Shown: piece by piece, positions 9,867 to 38,906 of the stretch
How the letters are laid out: each line of letters starts with the position of its first letter
How positions within the stretch are numbered: position 1 is the stretch's first letter
NCBI GenBank assembly: GCA_963849325.1
Contig: CAWKHF010000006.1
Location: 782,285-846,284 of the forward strand
DNA length: 64,000 nucleotides
Direction: 5' to 3'
From: an uncultured Planctomycetota bacterium
GTDB taxonomy: Bacteria > Planctomycetota > Planctomycetia > Gemmatales > Gemmataceae
Program-made: the position numbers and the translations under genes
Notes under the pieces: generated by a model
Seen by the model: the letters and a program-made list of their open reading frames with translations, nothing else
Databases searched by the model: none
Told to the model about the DNA's origin: nothing

Positions 9867-11003
9867 TTAGAACAATTTTTGTTTGACCATCTCAAGGAAC
9901 GCGGTCACGTTCGATACACAAGGAACTTCCGAAACCATAGCCACATCTCCGTCAGATGCACGAACCGGTGGAACCGTGTGTTCGACCATCAAGGCTTTAA
10001 TGCGCTCCCAATTTATCGCATCGTCTGCCAGAAAGCCTGGGCTGGCCATCGCCTTTCCTCCAGCAGCATGGATTCGTTCAAGTTGCCGGTGGATGCCGAG
10101 ATATTCGGTTCGGTTCATGACGCGGGCAGGGCCGAGCATGATCCCTCTCATAACCTCGTTGTAATGTTTCGCGTGCAGGAGTCCTTCTTCGATTAGCACC
10201 TGACGGAGTTCATAACCGATGGTTTCTGCAAGGCCGCCAGCGGGGGCTTGCGACTCCAGTCTCTGGAGCATTCGGAAGACTGCGTGATCAGGACGGGGAG
10301 TCGCAAGGGCAAGGCTACAGACAATCACTGTCAATCGGTCGATCGTCACCGGGACAACATTATGCTCATAACGCGGCTGCGACAGGATATTCCGGATCCC
10401 GTCGTAAAACTCGGTTTCAATGGCGGATGCGGGCCATGTATGGGTGTTGTAAGCCATATTGGTTTTCAGCCACTGATCGATTCGCCGCGCCATACCCTCT
10501 GCCAAGAGGCCGGGAGAGAACGGCCGAAAGCGTTTTCCCGGCGTCACAAACCCGGCCATCATCTCTGTGTATGTTCCGTTTGTTACTTCCTGCTGTTCGA
10601 CCGTCCAAGGTCCGCTCCCACCCATGTAGGGAAAGTCCATTGGTGAAAACAGCAGTTTGGTCTCGTCCGCAAATTGTTGTGCCCGGTAACGTATATCGGC
10701 GTGGTTTGTGCCCTCATGGTCAGGTAAGGTTGCCAGCTTCGGAAGGATTTTGTGATAGCCATTGATCTCTCCCCCAGCGGCTGAAATATCCCCTGCCAGT
10801 TGGAATGCCGAGTGGACTCCGAAATCCACCAATTCGGCGAGGATTCGGAATCCTGGGTTACTGCTAATCAGCTGTAAATAGTGAATGTACTCATGGGAGA
10901 AGGACATAGTCATGACCGCGTTGGCCGGCATACCAGCCAAGTCAGACGATGATCCACGATCCGAGACATCGATCCTACACGAGAAAAAGTCGAAATACGC
11001 CAT
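9867..11003 (-). CDS. Hypothetical protein with HExxH motif, lower GC than flanks
   Basis: Long ORF with FSHEYIHYLQ and a later LAEGMA; visibly AT-richer than neighbours. Confidence 0.7.
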   Translation of the reverse strand: MAYFDFFSCRIDVSDRGSSSDLAGMPANAVMTMSFSHEYIHYLQLISSNPGFRILAELVDFGVHSAFQLAGDISAAGGEINGYHKILPKLATLPDHEGTNHADIRYRAQQFADETKLLFSPMDFPYMGGSGPWTVEQQEVTNGTYTEMMAGFVTPGKRFRPFSPGLLAEGMARRIDQWLKTNMAYNTHTWPASAIETEFYDGIRNILSQPRYEHNVVPVTIDRLTVIVCSLALATPRPDHAVFRMLQRLESQAPAGGLAETIGYELRQVLIEEGLLHAKHYNEVMRGIMLGPARVMNRTEYLGIHRQLERIHAAGGKAMASPGFLADDAINWERIKALMVEHTVPPVRASDGDVAMVSEVPCVSNVTAFLEMVKQKLF

Positions 11004-11251
11004 AATTATTCCTGATGATGTATTAAAGTCAGCGCTGTGTGTTACCCCTGGCGAAGGAAGCAACCAGTCAATCGATCCAACCTCGCCGAACTACTAGCTA
11101 GGGCGTGTCGCGCGTTCTAACTCCCTCCCGTCAATTCTCGCCTGGGGCGCTTGCCTGTCAAGCGAAGTCGTAACTCCCGGCCAATCTTTCCGATTGTCCC
11201 CACAGCGCCGGGGGTATCTCTACCCCCGGCAAGCGAGGTTCTGTGAGGCGA

Positions 11252-12147
11252 TTACATGAACTCCTCAACCAACTCACGGCGCTGGTCCTTGGTCAGGCCG
11301 CGCGCCTTGCCGACGAGTGGGCCGTCCTGCAAGGCCGCGTCGAGCTGATCCAGCGACGGGCGCGGATTGGGGTTTTTGTAGAACAGGCCAATGGGGATTT
11401 TCGCGCCCATTCCAGCGCCCGGTCCATCGCCGCGTGGAAGTCGGTCGAATCGTGGCCGTTGTCTTCCAGGCGGTAGACGTGATCGCGGAACCAGTGATAC
11501 GTGTTCTGCTTGTTGAAGGTCACGCACGGGCTGAACACGTCGATCAGGGCGAAGCCGGGGTGCTGAATGCCGTCCATGTACAGCTTGAGCAGGTGCTTGG
11601 GATCGCCGCTGAAGCCGCGGGCGATGTAGCCGCAGCCGATGGCCAGGGCCAGGGCCAGCGGGTTGAGCATGTGCTCCAGGTTGCCGCCCGGCGTGCTCTT
11701 GGTCACCATGCCGTGCTCGCTGGTCGGCGATACCTGACCCGTCGTCAGGCCGTAAATCTCGTTGTTCATGACGATGTAGGTCAGATTGATGTTGCGACGC
11801 ATGGCCTGGATGAAGTGGTTCAAGCCGATGCCATAACCGTCGCCGTCGCCGCCGGTGGCGATGACGGTCAGGTGATGGTTGGCCAGCTTGGCGCCGGTGG
11901 CGAAGGGCAAGGCCCGGCCGTGCAAGCTGTGTACGCCGTAGGAGCGGAAGAAACCGGGCAGGTTCGACGAGCAACCGATGCCGGACACGACCAGCAATTC
12001 ATGCGGCCGAATCTCCAGCTCGGCGCACGCCTTCTGCAAGACGTTGAGCACACCGAAATCGCCGCAGCCCGGACACCAGTCCGGCGCCACGTCCGCTTTG
12101 AAGTCCTTCACTTCGAGTTTGCGAGGGGTTGCGGTCAGGGTCGTCAT
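11252..12147 (-). CDS. korB: 2-oxoacid:ferredoxin oxidoreductase beta subunit (frameshift near 11400)
   Basis: WCPGCGDFG, SGIGCSS, LHGRALP, GGDGDG, NNEIYGLTTGQ. Confidence 0.93.
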
Positions 12148-12181
12148 TATGGAGAACTCCTTCGTTCGGTTTCGTGAGGGA

Positions 12182-12577
12182 TCAGGCTTTGTCCCGGCGG
12201 AAAATGATGCACAGGTGCTGCGTGTCTCCCTCGGGAGGGAAGGCGCGCATGCGGTTGCCGGTGCCCGGCTCGGCCGGGCACCAAATGAGATGATCGCCAT
12301 CCAGTTCGTAGATAATCAGCGACGTCTTGCCGCGGTGCTTCTCCGGGCCTTCGCGGATGGTCATGTCCATCATCTTGGGCTTGGCCGTCGGATCGAGGGT
12401 GTAGGTGCCGAGGTAAACGTCGCCGTTCTTGAAGGTGACGGTGAAGTGTTCGCCGGCGATGAGCATATGCGCCTCGCGGATGCCGGAGACGAATTTCCAC
12501 ATCCCTTGCAGGCGCTCTTTATCTCTTCCGGCGGCAGCTTCGCGCGCCAGGTCGGGGTCGAGTAACGCGGTTTCCAT
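12182..12577 (-). CDS. TIGR03067 domain protein
   Basis: LQGMWK, YTLDPTAKPKMMDM, IYELDGDHL. Confidence 0.8.
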   Translation of the reverse strand: METALLDPDLAREAAAGRDKERLQGMWKFVSGIREAHMLIAGEHFTVTFKNGDVYLGTYTLDPTAKPKMMDMTIREGPEKHRGKTSLIIYELDGDHLIWCPAEPGTGNRMRAFPPEGDTQHLCIIFRRDKA

Positions 12578-36610: not shown

Positions 36611-36881
36611 ACTGAAGGAAGAGGCCATCGTCAACAAGGTGGGTGGCCGTTTCAAGCTGTCGACGCTGATCCAGAAGCGGATGGTGGCGCTGAACACCGG
36701 CGCTCGGCCGCTGGTCGAAGTGCGCGGCGGCGACAAGATGGCCATCGTCATTCAAGAAATCTTGCAGGACAAGATTTATCTGGACACGTCGGGTCAGGTG
36801 CAAGCGCGTGGCGTTAGCGCCAGCGACGCCGCCCGCCGGGCCATGCTCGGCGACATCTCCGCCGACCTCGGCGGCGACTGA
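36600..36881 (+). CDS. rpoZ: RNA polymerase omega subunit
   Basis: [15 protein letters not shown]; follows gmk. Confidence 0.85.
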
Positions 36882-36903
36882 AGCCAGATCGAAGGGGGAC
36901 GTC

Positions 36904-38355
36904 ATGGCCGAAGCAACCGACCGTCCGCGGGGCGCCGCCGGGGCGACCCCCGCCCCGGGGCTGGGGACAACCGCGCCCGAACCGTATCGCCCGTTGTCGC
37001 TGCTGGCCCTGGTCGCCTTCGCGGGGGCGGTCGTCTACGCCCTGATCGTGGCGGCGGGCGCCGTGGTTGCCCTGTTCAATCGGATACCCTGGTTGATGCC
37101 GGGCTGGTCCTTTCTCTTGCCCATCCTCGTTCTGGTCCTTTGCTGGGTGGCCCGCGCACGCATCCGCGGCTCCGAGGGAACGCTGGGCGGCCTGGCCTTC
37201 ACCGCCTGGGGCGTGCGCCTGACCGTCGTGGTCGGACTCACCTACGCCGCCTATTACGGCTTCACCTTTTTCGCCGTGAGCTTGCAGGCCAAGGACTGCG
37301 CCAACCAGTTCTTCGACCAGCTCAAGCAGGGCCACACGGAACGCGCCTTTCTGCTCGGCATGGACGTCGCCGCCAAGGACATTGACGACGCCGACCTGCG
37401 CAATACGCTGGAGTTCCGCTTTAACTCCCCCACCGGCCCCGGCGGCTCCGGCGGCGCCTTCACCACGTTCCGGCAAAGCCCCCTCGTCCGCGCCATCGAG
37501 TCCGGCGGCGGCGCCACGCGCATCGCGCCGTTGGGTGTCAGCGATTGGAGTTACCAGCAGGGCGGCTACCGCGTCCTCCTCAAGTACGAGGTGTCCACGC
37601 CCCTGATGGCCGTCGAGATGGCGGTGGAGACGTTCGGTCGCGACAGCAAGACCGGCGGCCGGCAATGGCAGGTCATGCTCAACCGAGGCGACACGCGCCT
37701 CATCCCCGAGACCATGAAACTCACCCCGGCGGGGGCGGAGTGGATGCAAAAGGCGATGTTGGCCCAGAATTTTGCTTCCACCTGGCAGGACAAGGTCAAT
37801 CAACGTCTCTGGACGGACGTGTATCTGGATACCCTCAAGCCCTCCCAGCGCGAGCGGTTGCACAAGGGCCGGCAGGTGCTGCGCGTGCTGCCGGCGGTGT
37901 CGCTGGCCGGCCTGGCTCCGCTGGGTCTGTGGGACCAATCCTGTCTCGAACTTCTGGATGGCTCGCGGAAGCTCGCCGAGGGCAAGCTGATCCGCATCGA
38001 CGACAAAACCTTCTGGACCAGCAAGCTCGAGCGCAAGGCTATCCTGGCGAACCTCCAGCAGACCTTTCACCCTCGATCCGACGGCAAGGCCCGCTTCACC
38101 CTCCAGCTTCAGAAGACGCAGATGCCGCCGTCGCGCACGGCCGGGGATGAGTTGACTTTCCTCCTCGACGCCGTTCTGACGTACCTGGACGAGACCGGAT
38201 CGCGGCCCAAGTATCTCGTCCAGGCCCAGGTCGCCGTGACGGCGGAGCAAAACGAGGCCGATCGTTCTCCGTCGGCCTGGCGCATTGAGGCCATCGAGAT
38301 CAGCAGCGGCCGCACGCCGCCGGAGCCGCCACAGAAAGGGCGCCTGGGAGGCTGA
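36904..38355 (+). CDS. Hypothetical membrane protein
   Basis: YRPLS followed by three TM segments and a large soluble domain. Confidence 0.75.
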   Translation: MAEATDRPRGAAGATPAPGLGTTAPEPYRPLSLLALVAFAGAVVYALIVAAGAVVALFNRIPWLMPGWSFLLPILVLVLCWVARARIRGSEGTLGGLAFTAWGVRLTVVVGLTYAAYYGFTFFAVSLQAKDCANQFFDQLKQGHTERAFLLGMDVAAKDIDDADLRNTLEFRFNSPTGPGGSGGAFTTFRQSPLVRAIESGGGATRIAPLGVSDWSYQQGGYRVLLKYEVSTPLMAVEMAVETFGRDSKTGGRQWQVMLNRGDTRLIPETMKLTPAGAEWMQKAMLAQNFASTWQDKVNQRLWTDVYLDTLKPSQRERLHKGRQVLRVLPAVSLAGLAPLGLWDQSCLELLDGSRKLAEGKLIRIDDKTFWTSKLERKAILANLQQTFHPRSDGKARFTLQLQKTQMPPSRTAGDELTFLLDAVLTYLDETGSRPKYLVQAQVAVTAEQNEADRSPSAWRIEAIEISSGRTPPEPPQKGRLGG

Positions 38356-38404
38356 GCAGGAAGAAGGGTCATGCCCCCTCCCTCCGGTGCTTCCCAGCGA
38401 TAAC

Positions 38405-38432
38405 TTGACGGCGCCACCGGCTGCCGTAAACT
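38405..38432 (+). promoter_or_regulatory. Sigma70-like promoter upstream of tRNA-Leu
   Basis: TTGACG-16 nt-TAAACT. Confidence 0.55.
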
Positions 38433-38509
38433 GCTAGTGCCCAGACAAGCGAGTTCCCGTCCGAGCCGGAAACGGAAGCGAAGGAAGACGGACGAAAGAG
38501 CGAAACCAC

Positions 38510-38619
38510 GGCCAAGTGGCGGAATTGGCAGACGCGCTGGACTTCATCATCGTTGCATGATCGGTGCAGCAAAATCCAGTGCCCGCAAGGGCGTGTGGGT
38601 TCGAGTCCCACCTTGGCCA
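38510..38619 (+). tRNA. tRNA-Leu with a 26-nt insertion in the anticodon loop (CAA if 38544-38569 is removed)
   Basis: Acceptor GGCCAAG/CTTGGCC+A73, D arm GCGGAATTGGCAGACGC, anticodon stem CTGGA/TCCAG, variable arm GCCC-GCAA-GGGC, T arm GTGGG-TTCGAGT-CCCAC. Confidence 0.9.
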
Positions 38620-38906
38620 CCTTAACTTCTTTACTAGTAAGTACTTGTGATGACAGCGGATGACTAACTTCCCGCGAGAGAGAGGGTTGCGTCAACTGCT
38701 GTCCTCCGCAGTCCGTCGAGGCTGCCCCGAGCGTGCAGCCCCAGGCGATAGTCGCCGGTGGGCGTCTCCAGCAGGCCGCTCCGCGCTTGCGGTAGCAGAC
38801 GCGGCACCAGCAGCCGGCCATCCCGGAGAGCCGCCTGCGGTTCGCGGTCCGGAGCCAGCAGCATGTCAACTAGGCCCGAGGCAGCGAGAGACTCGACATC
38901 GAGTAA

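Follow-up and report, generated by a model that had tools for sequence, protein, structure and literature searches.

The window analyzed here, a stretch of 64,000 nucleotides, comes from an uncultured soil bacterium of the family Gemmataceae whose genome (G000) is a 14-contig assembly of 8.16 Mb with 85% completeness. At positions 38510-38619 of its plus strand, we identified a class-II tRNA-Leu gene (Rfam tRNA model RF00005, 48.9 bits, gathering score 29), with a YicC-like gene, gmk, rpoZ, and a 515-residue open frame upstream and an S9 peptidase gene on the opposite strand downstream. A sequence-only reading of this locus had described a leucine tRNA with every stem intact and an anticodon loop of 33 nt instead of 7, and both points agree with the sequence, the Rfam match, and, for the stems, ARAGORN. 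In the cloverleaf, the acceptor stem has 7 bp and the D stem 3 bp; the anticodon stem is CTGGA/TCCAG, the variable arm is long, and a T arm and a discriminator A complete the structure. The Rfam alignment places a 29-base insertion state within the anticodon loop, and the anticodon stem closes a loop of 33 bases that shrinks to 7 only when positions 38544-38569 are removed. ARAGORN in default mode missed the gene and, with introns allowed, called a tRNA-Leu(caa) with a 26-base intron. Excision of these 26 bases gives the 84-base tRNA-Leu(CAA) that the same reading had proposed, with a loop equal to that of uninterrupted orthologs, and the promoter that it had placed upstream is likewise found. 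The features of the locus are as follows:

36808..38355, plus strand: upstream open frame with no Pfam match, located beside the tRNA gene in 9 of 9 genus loci (tblastn); it marks the orthology of the locus and lies outside the proposed mechanism

38405..38432, plus strand: promoter-like site TTGACG-16-TAAACT (1 site found, 0.1 expected in shuffled sequences)

38510..38543, plus strand: 5' exon, with the 5' strand of the acceptor stem, the D arm, the 5' strand of the anticodon stem, C32, and U33 (invariant or compensated across 10 variants)

38544..38569, plus strand: intervening sequence of 26 bases between U33 and C34 (bounds from uninterrupted orthologs; single copy in the genome)

38546..38561, plus strand: hairpin within the insert, with arms ATCAT (38546-38550) and ATGAT (38557-38561) and a 6-base loop (folds and variant alignment)

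38564..38569, plus strand: 3' tail GTGCAG that ends the insert (GTGCGG in 2 variants); all 10 variants agree in G, T, G, C, and the final G

38570..38619, plus strand: 3' exon, with the anticodon CAA, A37, A38, the 3' strand of the anticodon stem, the long variable arm, the T arm, the 3' strand of the acceptor stem, and the discriminator A (Rfam, ARAGORN, and variant alignment)

The insert is flanked by ACT and CAAAA, and its boundaries were set between U33 and C34 because this is the sole choice that yields the loop of 25 uninterrupted orthologs. The open frame at 36808-38355 encodes at most 515 residues, evolves fast, and overlaps the end of rpoZ, so its true start probably lies later.

We searched for the 110-base gene in 121 genomes of the family with BLAST and found full-length matches in G107 (98%) and G093 (86%) and an 84-base match in G038; elsewhere, query bases 5-34 abutted bases 61-105, the arrangement of uninterrupted genes. 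Of 30 loci annotated with ARAGORN, 25 had an uninterrupted tRNA-Leu(CAA) gene and 3 a gene with the insert; one further gene was odd, and the last locus had no leucine tRNA gene. A pattern scan of 252 family genomes, in which the anticodon was left unconstrained, matched in 16 genomes, of which 6 harbored the same insert (G000, G107, G165, G166, G172, and G093), 3 had unrelated inserts (G215, G111, and G054), and the remaining 7 matches were something other than this insert, with an ordinary uninterrupted tRNA-Leu in 3 and no tRNA in 4 according to ARAGORN. Across the 252 family genomes scanned, the short insert recurs at one site in 6, and no full-length intron ending in G was found there. 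The metagenome pattern scan returned 46 loci, 10 of which were tRNA-Leu genes with the same insert, adding 4 new variants and 1 new tRNA body (anticodon stem CGGGA/TCCCG). A 15-base pattern scan of the genome collection gave only chance matches among the matches listed. In viral contigs, none of the 4 matches to the insert was a tRNA, and the second hairpin type, that of G215 and G111, had no match. In one DNA run (0.07 share), one assembled contig starts at 38574 and a second comes from another organism, and neither spans the insert. An assembly artifact is ruled out on this comparative evidence, as 5 further genomes of Gemmataceae and 10 metagenome contigs have the same insert at the same site.

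Within the genus (11 genomes), the orthologous locus harbors the insert in 5 genomes (G000, G107, G165, G166, and G172) and precisely lacks it in 4 (G038, G167, G169, and G171), with no locus match in G168 (64% complete) and G170; the insert thus behaves as a discrete unit. A second genus also includes a carrier (G093) and a noncarrier (G012). Carriers (+) and noncarriers (-) interleave on the tree of the neighboring protein, (G171-,(G000+,G107+)),(G172+,(G038-,G167-),(G169-,(G165+,G166+))), which is a single-gene tree with moderate support, and this interleaving implies that the insert was either precisely lost several times or gained several times. An exchange of alleles by recombination would also be possible, given the identical exons (34 and 50 bases).

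The hairpin of the insert takes the form ATCATC-4 nt-GATGAT in most relatives, with 6 bp and a loop of 4-5 bases, and the loops vary freely among variants (GTAA, GTTC, GATC, CGTC, and TTTTC). The closing C-G pair is lost in G000 and G107, leaving a 5-bp stem, and is changed to U-G in one variant. The 4 core pairs are the same in all 10 variants, with no compensatory change; because they never vary, there is no covariation for or against the stem. The 2 bases that precede the tail vary (AG, CG, AC, AA, and CC). In all, 15-16 bases of the insert are invariant in 10 of 10 variants (T1, C2, T4-C5-A6-T7, A-T-G-A-T, G-T-G-C, and the last G), a count drawn from 10 distinct variants of few lineages, 4 of them found by a pattern requiring CAAAATCC. 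An invariant stem sequence together with an invariant single-stranded tail suggests that the insert would be recognized by a partner rather than through its structure alone. Some minimum-energy folds gave a rod-like structure pairing bases 26-29 with the tail and C34, and this structure was rejected, being lost when the anticodon stem changes.

We compared the conservation of the insert with that of its surroundings among the 10 distinct precursors. Mean pairwise identity was 0.96 for the exons and 0.85 for the insert (minimum 0.73), compared with 0.51 and 0.53 for the 40-base upstream and downstream flanks and 0.50-0.52 for shuffled sequences; the protein of the upstream frame is only 38-57% identical between genus loci (tblastn, 9 of 9 loci). 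Of the flanking sequence, only the -35 and -10 hexamers can still be aligned among relatives, in carriers and noncarriers alike. Cloverleaf cells are 100% paired across the 10 variants, and 2 anticodon-stem pairs show compensatory changes (CG to GC, and UA to AU or GC). The loop bases YU...CAAAA are retained in all 6 carrier genomes, as identified by the scan without an anticodon requirement. With the insert removed in silico, the exons of carriers have an identity of 0.953, compared with 0.916 for uninterrupted genes, and the exons of G000 are identical to the uninterrupted G169 gene over all 84 positions. As insert and exon identity lie far above that of the flanks, which are at the level of shuffled sequences, both the insert and the tRNA are, judging from these alignments, under selection, and this is incompatible with a neutral remnant in a dead gene. 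The dead remnant that had been offered as the alternative to splicing is contradicted here, with an insert conserved at 85% between flanks of random level and exons as conserved as those of uninterrupted genes. An inactivating insertion into a dispensable tRNA gene, a reading to which the existence of a tRNA-Leu(UAA) and of an array-borne CAA tRNA lends something, is extremely improbable given this conservation, the compensatory stem changes, the conserved promoter, and exons identical to those of a live ortholog.

Another possibility is that a miniature mobile DNA hairpin, of the REP or palindromic-element type, inserted itself into the gene. Its build, a short conserved head or tail plus a palindrome, and its precise presence or absence with no target duplication would fit such an element. 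We give this very little credence, because the insert is single copy in the 8.16-Mb genome with up to 5 mismatches allowed, whereas REP/RPE-like elements need many dispersed copies, and because it always occupies the same site of the same gene and has been conserved for long together with an intact tRNA.

The complement of leucine tRNAs in the carrier genomes bears on whether the interrupted gene is needed. In G000, 87 tRNAs were matched by Rfam and 92 were called by ARAGORN, and neither search found a second class-II Leu(CAA) gene in this 85%-complete genome. The only other CAA anticodon belongs to a 74-base tRNA in a tRNA array (C1:516042-516115, 40 bits). No match to the uninterrupted class-II Leu(CAA) pattern was found in G107, G172, or G093; G165 and G166 had 1 pattern match each, located in coding sequence, and these are not tRNAs. 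By a crude estimate from long open frames, UUG makes up 12.8% and UUA 1% of the leucine codons of G000. tRNA-Leu(UAA) could read UUG by wobble, and with this possibility and the array-borne CAA tRNA the interrupted gene is not provably essential, though on its gene content G000 seems to need it. The Leu(UAA)-type gene is present and is itself split: at C2:959701-960004 (minus strand), a class-II tRNA is interrupted after U34 by a group I intron of approximately 217 bases (RF00028, 35.1 bits, below the gathering score), and ARAGORN mislabels this gene as Ser(gga). Three dense tRNA arrays were also identified in G000 (C1:515629-516193, C4:433741-435175, and C12:838476-839555, with 7, 13, and 13 genes a few bases apart), including 74-base "Leu" tRNAs that lack a long variable arm, along with many low scorers. 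Outside the window, at C6:234193-234278, a class-II tRNA (53.3 bits) combines a long variable arm with the anticodon AGC, an unusual combination.

The sequence-only reading had likened the insert to a core-less group I intron, with a U-G wobble in P1 at the 5' junction, a terminal G, and a P10 pairing of UUG with the CAA of the 3' exon. Among the 10 variants, U at position -1 and G at the end of the insert are found in all 10, and any insert placed after U33 has this U, which is U33 itself. In the proposed P1, U33 faces G in 7 variants, A in 1, and C in 2, giving U-G, U-A, and no pair, respectively; the hairpin that was thought to cap P1 keeps its core in 10 of 10 variants, and the P1 below it is not constant. 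Only the variant of G000, 1 of 10, has the UUG proposed for P10, which falls within the variable loop. The terminal G, which that reading had right, is the only group I feature found in all 10 variants, and of 20,000 shuffled inserts, 27% ended in G, 35% contained GGU, 51% contained UUG, 3.8% combined all three, and 8.9% had a stem of at least 5 bp. The resemblance to a group I intron is therefore not upheld, its P1 wobble and P10 pairing being unconserved, its hallmarks being common in shuffled sequences, and no full-length relative having been found in the genomes scanned.

We further searched for a group I core that could act at this gene. The 26 bases leave no room for a catalytic core (P3-P9), and RF00028 has no match at the locus. 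Two group I introns were identified by RF00028 in G000, that in the Leu(UAA)-type gene and one at C3:92943-93162. The latter (minus strand, 56.6 bits) has a 3' flank that ends in a T arm and an acceptor strand, and its 5' host gene was not recognized. Compared by eye, the ends of the insert show no likeness to either resident intron. RF00028 had no match in 3 of the 5 other carriers, namely G107 (97% complete), G165, and G172, and matched G166 and G093 only weakly; in five genomes without the insert, the one weak match was in G170, which itself has no Leu(CAA) match. No gene with G directly before CAAAANCC was found beyond the six carriers in the 252 family genomes. A scan of the genome collection for G-CAAAAYCC plus a T arm gave 40 loci, of which 4 have the same insert and none a group I match; the other 36 are chance matches, free-standing tRNA 3' halves (L410 and L419), or nested or duplicated tRNA pieces in candidate-phyla bacteria (L408, L425, and L427). 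The L410 and L419 halves, from Verrucomicrobia and Solirubrobacterales MAGs, are 3' halves of tRNA-Leu(CAA) that start exactly at the anticodon beside coding sequence and may represent duplicated integration sites.

The U before and the G ending every variant would be accounted for if the insert were a group I intron that retained only P1, the terminal G, and P10 and relied for splicing on a ribozyme core supplied in trans from another locus; G000 has 2 group I introns, and introns are known at the same loop position in tRNA-fMet (10.1101/2020.01.27.920355). This explanation is highly unlikely, given P1 and P10 elements that are not conserved, carriers free of RF00028 matches, and the lack of any longer G-ending intron at the site in the 252 family genomes or the 40 collection loci. 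Of the removal in trans that the sequence-only reading had proposed, the version by proteins is the most plausible, and the version by a separate ribozyme core is the unlikely one.

Splicing of the archaeal type was searched for as well. By a hand check, a bulge-helix-bulge motif (two 3-base bulges, 4 bp apart) was undrawable in both registers, as the 4-bp helices it needs, CAUC with AAAA or UGGA with GUGC, cannot form, and the minimum-energy folds contain no such motif. EndA (PF01974) had no match in G000 (85% complete), with positive controls in 4 archaea, and KptA/Tpt1 is absent from G000. An archease gene (C10:47709-48113) directly adjoins RtcB in G000, with no recognizable nuclease gene in this neighborhood. 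RtcB was found in 4 of 5 carriers and 5 of 5 noncarriers, being not found in the carrier G172 (78% complete), and because noncarriers have it too, the phyletic pattern is uninformative. In the G000 C10 region (L431:5018-7126 and 10142-12535), RtcB matches are spread over three frames and FtsK over two, which suggests indel errors in the 14-contig assembly. In G107, G012, and G171, RtcB is interrupted by an in-frame insert of approximately 1.5 kb, presumably an intein.

Other tRNA genes with additional bases in the anticodon loop were identified in G000 and elsewhere. A tRNA-like gene of G000 (C1:476146-476235, 54.2 bits) has a 27-base anticodon loop with a GC-rich hairpin and no U33, and no counterpart was found in 60 relatives, except for one weak partial match. 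A different insert, with the core CACTTGCGAGTG, is common to Leu-like tRNAs of G215 (L048:632-740) and G111 (L049:1485-1595), which belong to two other genera; the outer 6-bp helices of the two differ fully (CTGTAA/TTACAG and CCTCAG/CTGAGG) and pair with the CAG or GAG anticodon, and removal of the insert leaves no clean 7-base loop. The hairpin-bearing tRNA of G215 has an ortholog in none of the 10 other genomes of its genus. Leu-like tRNAs of G035 (L024:1495-1605) and G054 (L038:1463-1579) harbor unrelated anticodon-loop inserts of 27 and 34 bases, and the G035 gene, with mismatches in its stems, has the same tRNA body as the G215 gene. A wide scan of the genome collection for leucine tRNAs with extra bases gave at least 120 loci; most of the matches listed are Streptomyces loci with a GGCAGAC motif upstream of a normal tRNA by chance and were set aside. 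Among the others (L285/L325) are a Leu(UAG)-type tRNA of a Bacteriovoracaceae MAG, with a 22-base hairpin insert between positions 32 and 33, and a Leu-like tRNA of a Phycisphaerales MAG, with a 28-base insert and, in it, a hairpin core similar to that of the G215/G111 type.

The main rival to splicing, which we consider unlikely, is that the insert is never removed and the gene yields a leucine-accepting, non-decoding tRNA-like RNA in which the loop hairpin is the functional part, for example as a protein-binding handle, a regulator, or a leucine donor in a non-ribosomal reaction. Bacterial LeuRS does not read the anticodon, and the phylum has Leu-like tRNAs with long anticodon-arm hairpins and no clean 7-base loop (G215, G111, and the Phycisphaerales MAG). 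The core and tail are conserved without covariation, as expected of a recognition element, and on sequence grounds the invariance of the hairpin would fit equally well a protein-binding element that stays in the RNA, which speaks against the intron reading. However, 4 genus relatives and 25 other genomes have an ordinary decoding tRNA as the orthologous gene, the exons are identical to those of an ordinary gene, and a back-and-forth switch of function would be unparsimonious. The anticodon CAA and A37-A38 are also invariant beside the insert, and carriers would be left without a class-II Leu(CAA) tRNA even though UUG is common.

An improbable further alternative is that the insert and the tRNA body form a small self-cleaving, self-joining RNA of unknown type. 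The 15-16 strictly conserved bases of the insert would fit a catalytic or docking role, and no protein candidate emerged from the EndA search or the RtcB neighborhood. Against this, no Rfam ribozyme family matched positions 38400-38750 at E-values up to 10, and 26 bases are, to our knowledge, shorter than any known self-splicing unit.

The explanation that we favor, on which we are about evenly divided, is that the insert is a short bacterial tRNA intron of a new kind, removed in trans and kept by selection in the chromosomal tRNA-Leu(CAA) gene of one branch of Gemmataceae. In its sequence and predicted fold, the insert fits no known intron type, which probably implies a cut-and-rejoin route not yet described. 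The gene would be transcribed from its own promoter as a precursor of 110 bases, in which the insert would fold, between U33 and the wobble base C34, into a hairpin with the core UCAUC/GAUGA followed by the single-stranded tail GUGCRG. A trans-acting factor, most likely a protein endonuclease, would read the hairpin and tail and cut both ends of the insert, and the halves would then be rejoined, most plausibly by the encoded archease-RtcB ligase pair, to give a normal 84-base tRNA that reads UUG. More tentatively, we propose that some Gemmataceae possess a protein-dependent or otherwise non-group-I form of tRNA splicing, in which a dedicated factor recognizes the UCAUC/GAUGA hairpin and GUGCRG tail, cutting takes place on both sides of the wobble position, and archease-RtcB reseals the tRNA. 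The removal itself, its execution by proteins, and the identity of the ligase are what we infer from genomic data, and our confidence in the particular enzymes is lower than in the removal of the insert. We know of no bacterial machinery that removes such inserts.

Selection has thus preserved a core-less insert of 26 bases in the gene that chiefly decodes a common codon, across genomes in which the neighboring protein has an identity of only about 40-57%. If it is spliced, bacteria have an undescribed route for cutting and rejoining RNA, bacterial RtcB-archease, whose cellular role has long been unclear, gains a concrete candidate substrate, and there is a bacterial test case for the descent of short protein-spliced introns from other intron types. 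Should the protein route be true, it would give bacteria their first endonuclease-ligase tRNA intron, and bacterial RtcB a natural substrate. An insert that stays in the RNA would be a novelty as well, as part of a conserved non-decoding molecule resembling tRNA-Leu. Because the boundaries are exact and the motif is conserved, one construct would suffice to test the question directly.

In the textbook view, bacterial tRNA genes are interrupted only by self-splicing group I introns. They are described in the same way in a survey of tRNA group I introns (10.1101/2020.01.27.920355), which took in introns of at least 50 bp only. We found no short non-group-I introns described for chromosomal bacterial tRNA genes in the full-text literature searched, although a Leu(CAA) group I class, if tabulated in 10.1101/2020.01.27.920355, could have escaped this search. 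The insert is like the group I introns of bacterial tRNAs in lying in the anticodon loop, following a U, ending in G, and being patchily distributed among close relatives, and it shares its exact position with the tRNA-fMet group I introns, which sit between 33 and 34 (10.1101/2020.01.27.920355). Unlike group I introns, which have approximately 200 bases or more, it has 26 bases without a catalytic core, its P1 wobble and P10 are not conserved, and carriers exist without any group I RNA match.

Protein-spliced tRNA introns are treated as an archaeal and eukaryotic trait. The insert is similar to these introns in being short, in lying in the anticodon loop, and in that it would need an endonuclease and a ligase, with archease-RtcB present. 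In contrast to them (position 37/38, bulge-helix-bulge, EndA/TSEN), it lies at 33/34 in a bacterial host with neither the motif nor EndA. In bacteria and phages, anticodon nucleases of the PrrC/RloC type cut at or beside the wobble position, and the tRNA halves are rejoined through Pnkp-Rnl1 or RtcB repair. The proposed processing would resemble these reactions in the place of cutting and in the rejoining of halves, whereas they are stress or defense reactions on mature tRNA and the insert here is genomically encoded.

The "enigmatic" short tRNA introns of Lak megaphages, which match no intron family according to Devoto et al. 2019 (PMC6784885), offer a further comparison. They are, like the insert, short, unclassified, near-identical where present, and accompanied by coexisting insert-free copies. 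They are phage-borne, and at least one has a nested tRNA-like fold (PMC6784885), whereas the Gemmataceae insert, not found in viral contigs, sits at a syntenic chromosomal locus orthologous among its hosts and consists of a simple hairpin and tail.
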